Part shown: piece after piece, positions 22,204 to 58,870 of the stretch
Layout of the letters: each line of letters begins with the position of its first letter
How positions within the stretch are numbered: the stretch's first letter is position 1
Sequence record: PV467749.1
From: a phage
DNA: 64,000 nt
Reading direction: 5' to 3' (one strand)
Made by a program: the position numbers and the translations under genes
The notes under the pieces: generated by a model
Told to the model about the DNA's origin: nothing
Seen by the model: only the letters and a program-made list of their open reading frames with translations
Database searches by the model: none

Positions 22204-22610
22204 TTTTTTCTTTCAATCAAACATAGTCTACCAGAATGTACCATGCGATGGTGATTAGAACAAAGAATCATACACTTTCGAATTTCATCTTTGATAGCAT
22301 CTCGACTTTTACTGAACATAGAACTTGGTGTATGTTCTTTGGTATTAGGGTCAAGATGGTGAAAGTCTAAACATTCTGGATACTTCATCATACAAACACT
22401 ACAACCATAAAATGATTTAACTCTGGTCATGAAATCTTTATTTTTTCTTTTGATTTCTTCAAGTTTTTTGACATCAGTTTTTTTATTTCTGGTTTTCTTA
22501 CTGGTAATATTACTACAACCTTTGCATGTATTTCTATGTTTCCCAGTATCACTTCTTATACCAAATTCACTAATGTCTTTTTCAATATTACACGTGATAC
22601 ACTTCTTCAT
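22197..22610 (-). CDS. HNH endonuclease
   Basis: Cys-rich N-terminus; LDFHHLDPNTK...ILCSNHHRMVH. Confidence 0.75.
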   Translation of the reverse strand: MKKCITCNIEKDISEFGIRSDTGKHRNTCKGCSNITSKKTRNKKTDVKKLEEIKRKNKDFMTRVKSFYGCSVCMMKYPECLDFHHLDPNTKEHTPSSMFSKSRDAIKDEIRKCMILCSNHHRMVHSGRLCLIERKKG

Positions 22611-53840: not shown

Positions 53841-54236
53841 TTATTTACGATTCCTTGCGGAGTTCTTGTTCCTTGCTCTGAATGTTGGTGTCATCGAATG
53901 ACAATTAGGGCAAAGGATTTTTAAATTTGGTAGGTCATTATTTGTAGCATCACCATCAATGTGCTCAACTTCTGTCAGTACTGCACCATCTATTGGATGA
54001 CGTTTATCCCATCCACACTCTTCACATGCAGTTCCGCGTGTTTCATGTAGATATCTTCTCACAAATGGACATAACTGTATAGTAATACCTTTATATCCTG
54101 GATGTTCACCGTTAAGCCATTTATCAACTTTCTGTTGATATTGTAGCTCTTGTTGACATGCAACACTACAATATTTTGTTTGACCCTTTCGAACCAATTC
54201 AATTTTACAACATGCACAATAACGTTTTTCTTTCAT
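53841..54236 (-). CDS. HNH endonuclease
   Basis: EVEHIDGDATNNDLPNLKILCPNCHS; start moved to MKEKRY (ggag SD) because ORF-track start 54308 overlaps tRNA-Thr. Confidence 0.75.
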   Translation of the reverse strand: MKEKRYCACCKIELVRKGQTKYCSVACQQELQYQQKVDKWLNGEHPGYKGITIQLCPFVRRYLHETRGTACEECGWDKRHPIDGAVLTEVEHIDGDATNNDLPNLKILCPNCHSMTPTFRARNKNSARNRK

Positions 54237-54301
54237 ATAGTTCTCCATATAGTATGGAGTATTTATTTTCAAGAAAAATGTTATTTCTAAGAATATATTT
54301 G

Positions 54302-54372
54302 TGGTCAATATTAGAATCGAACTAATGACTCAGACTTACAAGATCCGTGTTATACCATTTAACTAATCAACC
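54302..54372 (-). tRNA. tRNA-Thr (UGU)
   Basis: Hand-folded 71-nt cloverleaf: GGTTGAT/ATTGACC acceptor, GTTA/TAAC D stem, CGGAT-CTTGTAA-GTCTG, ATTAG-TTCGATT-CTAAT. Confidence 0.85.
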
Positions 54373-55866: not shown

Positions 55867-56052
55867 CTATGAAATGAATGTAGCGTCAATTCCCATTATA
55901 AATGCAAATATACCAAACAATATCAACCCGATTGGTACAAAGATCATAGATCTATTTCCATGTTTCGATAAAAATCGCTCAACTGTAATTAAACGTATTG
56001 ATATCGGAACCATTATGATAATATACAATATTGAAAGAATTAAAAGTTGCAT
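55867..56052 (-). CDS. small membrane protein
   Basis: 61 aa, two TM segments. Confidence 0.55.
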   Translation of the reverse strand: MQLLILSILYIIIMVPISIRLITVERFLSKHGNRSMIFVPIGLILFGIFAFIMGIDATFIS

Positions 56053-56080
56053 TTTAATTTCCTATTGTAATTTCGTTTTG

Positions 56081-56153
56081 CGACTCTGGAGGAACTCGAA
56101 TCCCCAACCAATTAATTAACAGTTAATCGCACCACCTATTGTGCTACAGAGTC
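56081..56153 (-). tRNA. tRNA-Asn (GUU)
   Basis: 73-nt cloverleaf: GACTCTG/CAGAGTC, GCAC/GTGC, ATTAA-CTGTTAA-TTAAT, GGGGA-TTCGAGT-TCCTC. Confidence 0.85.
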
Positions 56154-56161
56154 ATAATTAT

Positions 56162-56368
56162 TTATAAGCCATGTCTTTTCAAAAATCTAGCAAACACATT
56201 TTTGGAAGCACCATAACTTTCATATATACTAACTTTTTTCTCACCATTATTCAAACGTTTTTTGATATCTTCTATGTTATCTTCTAAACGTTTTACGTTT
56301 GCAAATTTCTTAGATGGTATATTATTTTTGGTTCTATAATTCAGTACTGAACCTGAACTAATATTCAT
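56162..56368 (-). CDS. small basic protein, possible HTH DNA-binding
   Basis: 68 aa; VSIYESYGASKNVFARFLKRHGL helix-turn-helix-like; sits between tRNA genes. Confidence 0.45.
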   Translation of the reverse strand: MNISSGSVLNYRTKNNIPSKKFANVKRLEDNIEDIKKRLNNGEKKVSIYESYGASKNVFARFLKRHGL

Positions 56369-56386
56369 TATTTTATTTCAAAGTTT

Positions 56387-56691
56387 GTGAGCCATCTGTG
56401 AGTCGAACACAGTACCTAACGATTCGTATAATCTATAGTTTTCACTATAGTACGGACTATATCATCATCCCATAGGGATGCCGGACGCTAATGATGTATT
56501 ACACAGTAAGATCGTACTGTACCATCTAGTCTCTGCACCTTCCCAATACGCTTATTGGGCTTGGCTCAGGATTGTCATCACCATTACGTGTTAAGATTTC
56601 CCTGAATTCATCCAGTTTTTCAATCACCATTACTGATGAAAGTCACCATTGTCGATGAGTCGTTTGCTCTAACCACCGTGAGCTAATGGCC
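56387..56691 (-). tRNA. tRNA (anticodon CAU; Met or Ile2) interrupted by a group I intron
   Basis: 5' exon 56654-56691 GGGCCATTAGCTCACGGTGGTTAGAGCAAACGACTCAT. 3' exon 56387-56423 AATCGTTAGGTACTGTGTTCGACTCACAGATGGCTCA. The joined 75-nt sequence folds as a canonical cloverleaf. Confidence 0.85.
56424..56653 (-). ncRNA. group I intron (IC3-like, no ORF) in the tRNA anticodon loop
   Basis: 230 nt inserted after CAU. The 5' exon ends in U and the intron ends in G. Core elements GGTGCAGAGACTAGATGG (R) and GATGATATAGTCCG (S), plus GAGCCAAGC, as in bacterial tRNA introns. Confidence 0.8.
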
Positions 56692-56699
56692 CGATTTAG

Positions 56700-56936
<237 letters not shown>

Positions 56937-56961
56937 AAATTAATTATATCAGTACTTAATC

Positions 56962-57339
<378 letters not shown>

Positions 57340-58649: not shown

Positions 58650-58750
<101 letters not shown>

Positions 58751-58754
58751 ATTT

Positions 58755-58870
<116 letters not shown>

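Follow-up and report, generated by a model that had tools for sequence, protein, structure and literature searches.

Group I introns of phages are, by standard generalisation, found only in protein-coding genes, and those of bacteria in tRNA and rRNA genes. A group I intron of class IC3, the Azoarcus type, was reportedly described in bacterial tRNA-Ile(CAU) genes by Reinhold-Hurek and Shub in 1992. All phage introns known up to 2014 were placed in protein-coding genes by a review of that year, which also lists P7.1/P7.2 among the elements used to separate intron classes (PMC3984707), and the subgroup traditionally linked to phages is IA2 (PMC11878797). Class IA introns are also present in bacterial tRNA genes, chiefly those for tRNA-Asn and for tRNA-Asp in Patescibacteria, and their self-splicing has been shown in vitro (Nakagawa et al. 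2026, PMC13011429); in the same survey, position 36/37 is the classical site for tRNA-Arg, and the Patescibacteria IA introns lie mainly at 35/36. The tRNAs of Lak megaphages and of alternative-code jumbo phages have been said to "contain introns" (PMC8346664, PMC13037316). Collaborative (trans) homing has been described for cyanophage psbA (Zeng, Bonocora and Shub 2009, in the summary given in PMC3984707). The stretch considered here, 64,000 nucleotides (nt) of the phage sequence record PV467749.1 (the window), carries a tRNA(CAU) gene of a jumbo coliphage, and with high confidence we read this gene as a tRNA, most likely tRNA-Ile2, in which a class IA group I intron of 230 nt, devoid of an open reading frame (ORF), separates positions 36 and 37. 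In the literature searched, whose coverage is incomplete, so that absence is not proof, no group I intron is described from a phage tRNA gene; within it, this is the first clearly documented case.

The window is assigned by its sequence to an Asteriusvirus-like jumbo coliphage of about 350 kb from the 121Q/PBECO4 group, and the split gene sits within a tRNA cluster of this phage. The best match is phage TH47, with 95% identity over 91% of a 4.5-kb stretch, so the window is not identical to any deposited phage. The Rfam model RF00028 (Intron_gpI) matches the locus with 99.1 bits (E = 1.9e-24, gathering score 50), and this is the single group I match in the window. When the two exons are joined, ARAGORN recognizes a canonical 76-nt cloverleaf with the anticodon CAU, and its span of the split tRNA is 56692-56387, with G1 at 56692; exon 2 encodes no CCA. 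In its normal mode, ARAGORN does not report the split gene, and in its intron mode the gene is called tRNA-Arg(ACG), because the intron is placed 2 nt too far 5'; this call was rejected, as the intron-less alleles show the anticodon CAU. The limits of the Rfam match (56747-56433) were likewise rejected, since P1/P2 are forced onto upstream sequence and exon 1 and the match stops at P9, while the intron-less alleles give the true limits.

The intron-less alleles of phages WPEC5 and EJP2, both aligned, read ...ACTCAT/AATCGTT... across the junction, and in nine other coliphages, these two among them, the query match ends at the final base of exon 1 or shortly before it. As the first base of the intron is C and that of exon 2 is A, and the last base of the intron is G and that of exon 1 is T, the junction cannot slide, and the alignment places the insertion point between tRNA positions 36 and 37. 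The locus has the splice-site bases of a group I intron, namely U36 (56655), which can form a wobble pair with intron G9, and a last intron base G230 (56425), and no ORF of more than 38 amino acids (aa) overlaps the intron. A first, sequence-only reading of this DNA had proposed a group I intron splitting a phage tRNA(CAU) gene directly 3' of the anticodon, which is borne out by the Rfam score, the cloverleaf, and the intron-less alleles. Its insert length of 230 nt is exact, the U that ends the 5' exon as the third anticodon base and the G that ends the insert are both seen in the sequence, and its pairing of a GUGA segment, 8 nt into the intron, with exon UCAU as P1 and its statement that the intron lacks an endonuclease ORF hold as well. 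The feature lies on the minus strand, and the coordinates that it gave, 56387-56691, are off by one base at the 5' end of the tRNA.

Splicing is proposed to follow the standard group I pathway. In the folded precursor, U33-C34-A35-U36 would pair with the guide GUGA at intron nt 9-12, to which exon UCAU is complementary, forming P1, in which U36 and G9 make a wobble pair; as only loop bases take part in P1, the anticodon stem would not need to open. An external guanosine bound in P7 would then attack after U36, omega-G230 would replace this guanosine in the site, and the freed 3'-OH of U36 would attack after G230, joining U36 to A37 and releasing a normal 76-nt tRNA. The positions of the exons, the intron helices, and the adjoining ORF are collected in Table 1.

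Table 1. Features of the split tRNA(CAU) locus. Intron numbering runs from nt 1 to nt 230; the fold is a manual model guided by the Rfam alignment. MFE, minimum free energy.
Feature	Window position	Intron nt	Strand	Description and basis
tRNA exon 1	56692-56655		minus	GGGCCATTAGCTCACGGTGGTTAGAGCAAACGACTCAT; acceptor 5' strand, D arm, anticodon stem 5' strand, loop through C34-A35-U36; last base U36; ARAGORN and intron-less alleles
Group I intron, ORF-less	56654-56425	1-230	minus	230 nt; starts CGACAAUGGUGAC (DNA CGACAATGGTGAC), ends UAUACG (DNA TATACG); omega-G at 56425
P1 / internal guide sequence GGUGA	56643-56647	8-12	minus	Pairs G9-U36 (wobble at 5' splice site), U10-A35, G11-C34, A12-U33, and G8-intron C1; read from sequence
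P2 hairpin	56624-56639	16-31	minus	6 bp, GUAA (GNRA) tetraloop; MFE fold; changes on both sides in 5/6 pairs
P3 5' strand	56609-56615	40-46	minus	CUGGAUG; Rfam alignment; helix 98.8% paired, 4 covarying pairs
P4-P5-P6/P6a domain	56537-56605	50-118	minus	P4 50-55/84-89; J4/5 AAA; P5 outer 59-80, 60-79; P6 90-91/117-118; P6a 96-102/107-113
J6/7 and P7 5' strand	56527-56536	119-128	minus	GCAGA and GACUA; guanosine-binding helix; Rfam alignment
Extra hairpin between P7 and P3'	56493-56526	129-162	minus	34 nt; 4 bp + 7 bp with internal loop; P7.1/P7.2 position of class IA
P3 3' strand	56481-56487	168-174	minus	CGUCCGG; Rfam alignment, covariation
P8 hairpin	56467-56479	176-188	minus	AUCCC-UAU-GGGAU; Rfam alignment and MFE; 4 outer pairs 100% paired, all covary
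J8/7 and P7 3' strand	56455-56466	189-200	minus	GAUGAUA and UAGUC; Rfam alignment; invariant in relatives; unlike IC3 GAAGGGAUAGUCCAGACC
P9 hairpin	56433-56450	205-222	minus	7 bp, GAAA tetraloop; Rfam alignment and MFE; 6/7 pairs covary
tRNA exon 2	56424-56388		minus	AATCGTTAGGTACTGTGTTCGACTCACAGATGGCTCA; opens AATCGTTAGG, closes GGCTCA; A37, A38, anticodon stem 3' strand, variable loop, T arm, acceptor 3' strand, discriminator A73
68-aa ORF, C-terminal DNA-binding remnant of a free-standing HNH	56162-56368		minus	Starts 19 nt after tRNA 3' end; nuclease domain missing

The split tRNA is of the non-initiator kind, with a G1-C72 pair and an anticodon stem (AACGA/UCGUU) without a G-C run. Across all 5,426 E. 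coli genomes, the tRNA-Ile genes with a CAU anticodon come closest to it (59/77 identical), and it resembles ileX most; it has the C4-G69 and C5-G68 pairs in common with these genes. These two pairs are determinants of the host enzyme TilS, which converts C34 of tRNA-Ile2 to lysidine, so that AUA is read. AUA is a rare codon in E. coli; among window ORFs of at least 150 aa it makes up 33% of the Ile codons, or 22.5 per 1000 codons. The non-initiator features, the similarity to ileX, the two shared pairs, and the AUA usage together point to tRNA-Ile2 (CAU) of the lysidine-34 type as the most likely identity. Several intron-less alleles are annotated as "tRNA-Met", including L003:3109-3184 (WPEC5) and L004:3110-3183 (EJP2). 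Since the WPEC5 and EJP2 alleles are nearer to E. coli ileX (tRNA-Ile2, CAU) than to elongator tRNA-Met, these labels are probably misnomers that recur systematically in jumbo coliphage records.

Both intron-plus and intron-minus alleles occur among sister phages. The intron is 100% identical in TH47 and 99% identical in Turkey5, and about 91% identical in five Klebsiella phage records of the genus Alcyoneusvirus (Muenster, KP13-7, RCIP0023, phiKp_21, and OU509535); four annotated intron-bearing records have no feature under the match, and TH47 and OU509535 are without any annotation. From Asteriusvirus to Alcyoneusvirus, conservation of the intron is no lower than that of the exons, and the flanks cannot be aligned. 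None of 5,426 complete E. coli genomes contains a match to the intron, and a host origin was rejected on this ground. An IMG/VR scan for GACTCAT followed, after 170-200 nt, by GATGATATAGTCC identified three further viral contigs of 40-97 kb (L253-L255) with an orthologous intron at 36/37 of tRNA(CAU) and 64-69% identity to the window intron. In two of them, L254 and L255, which are 67-69% identical to it over almost the entire length, the guide is again GGUGAC, P2 is capped by a GNRA loop, and the hairpin lies between P7 and P3'.

Beyond the jumbo phages, a sensitive blastn search with the intron alone against 50,697 phage records leads to introns in protein-coding genes (Vibrio terminase, psbA, Twort/K-like, Aeromonas terminase, and Ralstonia DNA polymerase). 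The closest of these non-jumbo relatives are the terminase large subunit introns of the Vibrio phages R16F and VnaP, with 77-80% identity over 170-196 nt, and the introns of Staphylococcus Twort/K-like phages reach 70-75% over about nt 9-130. In Vibrio phage vB_VpaM_R16F (L005), the terminase large-subunit gene is annotated in five coding-sequence pieces and contains four group I introns; Vibrio phage 1.187.O (L006) has three Rfam intron matches and a GIY-YIG nuclease gene just upstream. Given such relatives, reverse splicing or illegitimate homing might recently have carried the intron into the tRNA from a phage protein-coding gene, e.g., terminase, in which case it would not be an old tRNA-specific lineage; only the guide differs as retargeting would need, being GGUCG for exon CGAU in the Vibrio terminase introns and GGUGA for UCAU in the window. 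Against this stand the orthologues at the same site in three unrelated IMG/VR contigs, which have diverged to only 64-69% identity while L254 and L255 keep the guide, and the sharing of the intron by two phage genera; a recent jump is thus considered unlikely, and the orthologues argue that this intron lineage has long been associated with phage tRNA(CAU) genes.

The intron has a conserved, covarying fold from P2 to P9. An unconstrained MFE fold alone recovers P2, P3, P4, P6, P8, and P9. In an alignment of six sequences, which includes Klebsiella and Vibrio phage relatives, 90.9% of the cells are paired, compared with 30-45% in slid controls, and 32 of 64 pairs are changed on both sides, compared with 4-11 in the controls; none of 500 shuffles reaches the observed values. 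With 12 sequences, the paired fraction is 87.6% (33-40% in slid controls) and 45 of 63 pairs are changed on both sides, again with 0/500 shuffles. P4 is 97% paired with four covarying pairs, P6a is 95% paired with covariation in all seven of its pairs, and the extra hairpin between P7 and P3' shows changes on both sides in 9 of its 11 pairs in the 12-sequence alignment. P7, which pairs intron nt 124-128 with 196-200, is invariant in 12/12 aligned relatives, as are J8/7 and J6/7. In P5, the pairs 59-80 and 60-79 show covariation (UA to CG) and took the place of a register of 61-80. The intron has two copies of one 11-mer, GTAATGGTGAT, at 56623-56633 and 56577-56587 on the minus strand (nt 22-32, P2 loop/3' strand, and nt 68-78, P5 region), and this repeat is not preserved in the Klebsiella phage copy.

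The same data bear on whether the intron is still functional. It could have decayed into a relic that does not splice, the split tRNA being a pseudogene without further use to the phage, given that the adjacent homing endonuclease is degenerate in the window, as expected late in the life cycle of a mobile element, and that many sister phages have an uninterrupted copy. All core helices are intact, however, most of the substitutions that separate the E. coli phage copy from the Klebsiella phage copy are compensatory, and P7, J8/7, and J6/7 have not changed across the 12 relatives. The exons still form a perfect cloverleaf, the intron is at least as well conserved as they are between two genera in which the flanks have become unalignable, and the high AUA usage implies a need for the tRNA. 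A relic is therefore regarded as very improbable.

Similarity ranking, bacterial references, architecture, and reciprocal covariance models place the intron in class IA, the phage type, and not in IC3, an assignment made at the level of the class and with home-made models. In the blastn ranking, phage protein-gene introns score 151, 131, 101, and 85 bits over nearly the full length, the first two being the Vibrio terminase introns over nt 3-201, whereas bacterial tRNA introns reach at most 78 bits, mostly in the universal core at nt 47-133 (among the matches listed), and tRNA-Ile2 introns of class IC3 at most 47 bits, at nt 47-136 only. For bacterial references, 185,579 species genomes were scanned for the core motif AGCCAAG...GAAGGTGNAGAGACTNGA, which yielded at least 120 loci; 102 of the 121 bacterial matches listed lie inside split tRNA genes. 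The start of P3' follows P7 after 39 nt in the window intron and after 2 nt in 83/96 bacterial tRNA introns among the matches listed, and the Rfam alignment accordingly has a 37-nt insertion between P7 and P3' in the window intron. Every Vibrio terminase and psbA intron shown has an insertion here too, of 29-60 nt. The J8/7-P7' segment of the window intron is GAUGAUAUAGUCC (GAUGAUAUAGUCCG), of the phage/IA type, and that of the bacterial IC3 type is GAAGGGAUAGUCCAGACC. Two cyanobacterial tRNA-Arg(CCU) introns (L012 and L069) combine an IC3-type J8/7-P7' (GAAGGGAUAGUCCAG) with a P7-P3' insertion of about 34 nt, so the insertion alone is not a perfect class marker.

Two covariance models were built in the same way, R1 from 16 bacterial tRNA introns of IC3 architecture and R2 from seven bacterial tRNA introns with the insertion, three of them published Patescibacteria introns (class IA according to PMC13011429) and four similar ones, with no phage sequence included. 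R1 gives the window intron 63.9 bits, over model positions 10-92 only (the P4-P6 core), compared with 98.6-123.3 bits over the full length for held-out IC3 introns. R2, by contrast, matches the window intron over its full length, at positions 1-217 (56425-56617), with 124.0 bits, compared with 46-72 bits for the IC3 references.

The sequence-only reading had favoured the small IC3 class on the strength of core strings, all of which are present (GGTGCAGAGACTAGATGG at intron nt 116-133, GATGATATAGTCCG at nt 189-202, and GAGCCAAGC at nt 88-96); these strings belong to the general group I core (P6, J6/7-P7, and J8/7-P7') that is shared by several classes, and so do not support an IC3 assignment. 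Its likeness to the Azoarcus intron stands as regards the host gene, the 36/37 site, and the CAU/GUG core of P1, and fails as regards the class. That the intron belongs to the small IC3 lineage and was captured by the phage along with a host-like tRNA gene finds support in the tRNA species, site, and P1 core, which are those of the betaproteobacterial tRNA-Ile2 introns L016, L054, L097, L119, and L128, in the common P6-J6/7-P7 strings, in the prevalence of split tRNA genes among the bacterial matches listed, and in the remaining R1 score, but the distance from P7 to P3', the type of J8/7-P7', the partial R1 match beside a full-length R2 match, the low blastn scores against tRNA-Ile2 IC3 introns, and the lack of any match in the 5,426 E. 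coli genomes leave this reading largely refuted and least probable of all.

Several points weigh against the overall reading of a functional class IA intron in a tRNA-Ile2 gene. We infer self-splicing in vivo from sequence conservation and covariation only, and P9.0, P10, and the inner P5 are weakly supported. The distinction between tRNA-Ile2 and elongator tRNA-Met draws on the likeness to host ileX, with a provisional metT sequence as comparison, and on the TilS determinants. R1 and R2 are home-made models with short calibration, and the 64 bits that the common core receives from the IC3 model mark the IA and IC3 classes as related rather than disjoint. At a finer level, the only support for IA2 over the IA1 or IA3 sub-subgroups would be the Twort-like similarity (70-75%, nt 9-130).

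Phage tRNA introns appear to be under-reported rather than rare. In IMG/VR viral contigs, where the core motif was counted from at least 120 matches, 69 of the 120 matches listed lie in split tRNA genes (examples within L131-L250 are L184, L230, L232, and L248). Of these 69 loci, 22 have five or more tRNAs besides the split one, a number that comes to 25 for a locus on a contig of 297 kb; the tRNA density around the listed viral split tRNAs is 0.40 per kb, compared with 0.02 per kb around bacterial intron-tRNAs. This suggests that split tRNAs are frequent in the tRNA arrays of uncultivated phages, and the earlier remark that such an intron is uncommon in a phage agrees with the literature searched and not with these sequence data. 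Unannotated putative matches to an intron-containing tRNA query of the IC3 type were also noted in the cultured 490-kb Agrobacterium phage Atu_ph07 (MF403008 113074-113244) and in uncultured 735-kb phages (LR756501 190286-190526). Under-reporting lowers the singularity of the window intron but widens its reach.

Downstream of the split gene, the 68-aa ORF is 78% identical to residues 167-234 of an HNH protein of Turkey5, at the same position and with the same start codon. In Turkey5 (L001:3432-4136) and TH47, the tRNA is followed after 19 nt by an HNH homing endonuclease of 234 aa (XMR01971.1), and PHROG 14913, an HNH family, covers residues 1-149 of the Turkey5 protein. Turkey5 has two copies of TAAAATAATGAA, a direct repeat of 12 nt, one at the start codon and the other at codons 165-167; they flank about 500 nt that are missing in the window, which keeps a single copy of TAAAATAATGAA at the same ATG, and recombination between the two copies thus removed the nuclease domain (or added it). 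TH47 and Turkey5, the two E. coli phage records that contain the intron, are also the two with this HNH, which was not found in the intron-less coliphages (E < 1e-10). In RaK2 and K64-1, a 69% homologue follows at a distance of 19 nt on an intron-less tRNA(CAU) that is unannotated in GenBank, and the intron of Muenster is not accompanied by this HNH. The RaK2 tRNA (L251:1404-1481; NC_019526 about 178885-178962) has no RefSeq annotation and lies 19 nt upstream of the HNH gene ORF219. The endonuclease appears to be tied to the 3' flank of the tRNA(CAU) gene. HNH genes beside tRNA genes recur throughout this phage group, phage CBB included (PMC5259590). An intact HNH ORF at 53841-54308 (minus strand) abuts or overlaps tRNA-Thr (54301-54372), and a second HNH-like stretch lies at about 22236-22370 (minus strand), about 34 kb away. 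Of the three free-standing HNH genes that had been announced nearby, these account for one intact ORF and one HNH-like stretch, so that the statement is only partly confirmed; the small helix-turn-helix (HTH) ORF mentioned with them exists, and is itself the C-terminal remnant of an HNH.

The idea that the HNH always travels with the intron, and that the intron gives immunity, is weakened by RaK2 and K64-1 on the one hand and by Muenster on the other. We infer that the intron may move by homing at the DNA level with the help of the neighbouring free-standing HNH, and a more specific proposal, put forward as a tentative possibility, is that the ORF-less intron and the abutting HNH form a collaborative-homing cassette aimed at phage tRNA-Ile2 genes. 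In mixed infections, the endonuclease would cut the intron-less tRNA(CAU) alleles of competing jumbo phages, repair would copy in the intron and the endonuclease gene, and the intron would shield its carrier by disrupting the recognition site. If true, homing on a phage tRNA gene would be known here for the first time, and, with 69 split tRNAs among the 120 IMG/VR matches listed, phage tRNA arrays would be a major overlooked niche for mobile ribozymes.

On the other side of the split gene, a strong sigma-70-like promoter match (TGGACA, 17 nt, TATAAT, upstream TG; 11/12) at 56943-56971 on the minus strand lies directly upstream of tRNA-Ser(GCU) and could drive the run of tRNA-Ser, tRNA(CAU), and tRNA-Asn; no terminator-like site was found in 56050-57000. 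Farther away, a borderline Rfam tRNA match at 58672-58750 (minus strand; 29.3 bits, threshold 29), which adjoins tRNA-Ser(UGA) at 58755-58844 and is not called as a tRNA by ARAGORN, may represent a tRNA that is degenerate or unusual. Among about 30 neighbouring ORFs, Pfam and PHROG scans revealed nothing else connected with the intron.

The split tRNA(CAU) gene is a clear counter-example to the generalisation on phage introns, and it is found in cultured, available phages, namely TH47, Turkey5, and the Muenster-type Klebsiella phages. It also marks an annotation gap, as the intron-bearing tRNA is unannotated in the GenBank records examined, is named tRNA-Arg(ACG) by the intron mode of ARAGORN, and is labelled tRNA-Met in its intron-less copies. 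As alleles without the intron exist in nature and the adjacent homing endonuclease is found in several states of decay, both splicing and homing are directly testable, and a system for studying homing in phage tRNA arrays is ready to use.

Compared with the collaborative homing of cyanophage psbA, the locus is alike in TH47 and Turkey5, where an ORF-less intron is accompanied by a free-standing HNH directly beside the interrupted gene, and differs in that the HNH also stands beside an intron-less tRNA(CAU) in RaK2 and K64-1, the intron stands alone in Muenster, and only a remnant of the endonuclease is left in the window. The IA introns of Patescibacteria resemble the window intron in their IA architecture, the insert at the P7.1 position, the location in the anticodon loop, the mostly ORF-less state, and the 3' core strings AGCGYCC...GGAUGAUGAUAUAGUCC...GAAA, but they interrupt bacterial tRNA-Asn and tRNA-Asp at 35/36, rather than a phage tRNA(CAU) at 36/37, and are only 63-70% identical to it in sequence. 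The IA2-type introns of phage protein genes are its closest relatives as ribozymes, are likewise small and ORF-less, and have the P7-P3' insert with compensatory changes; they differ in their protein-coding hosts and in a guide that fits their own exons.

The Azoarcus-type IC3 introns occupy the same tRNA species at the same 36/37 site, pair the CAU of the 5' exon with a GUG guide, are ORF-less and 200-230 nt long, and have nearly identical P4-P6 and J6/7-P7 core strings. The set recovered here, with an exon 1 end of GGACTCAT, a GUG guide in the intron, and an exon 2 start of AATCC, comprises L016 (Polynucleobacter), L054 (Comamonadaceae), L097, L119, L128, and L106, and the viral contig L186 belongs to the same betaproteobacterial-type tRNA(CAU) IC3 set. 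In these introns, P3' follows P7 after 2 nt and J8/7-P7' is GAAGGNAUAGUCCAG, whereas the window intron has a 34-nt hairpin and the phage-type segment; the covariance model scores lie about 60 bits apart in both directions, and the hosts are bacteria in one case and a virulent phage in the other. Two ribozyme lineages, the phage-type IA and the bacterial-type IC3, have thus settled independently at the identical nucleotide of the same tRNA.

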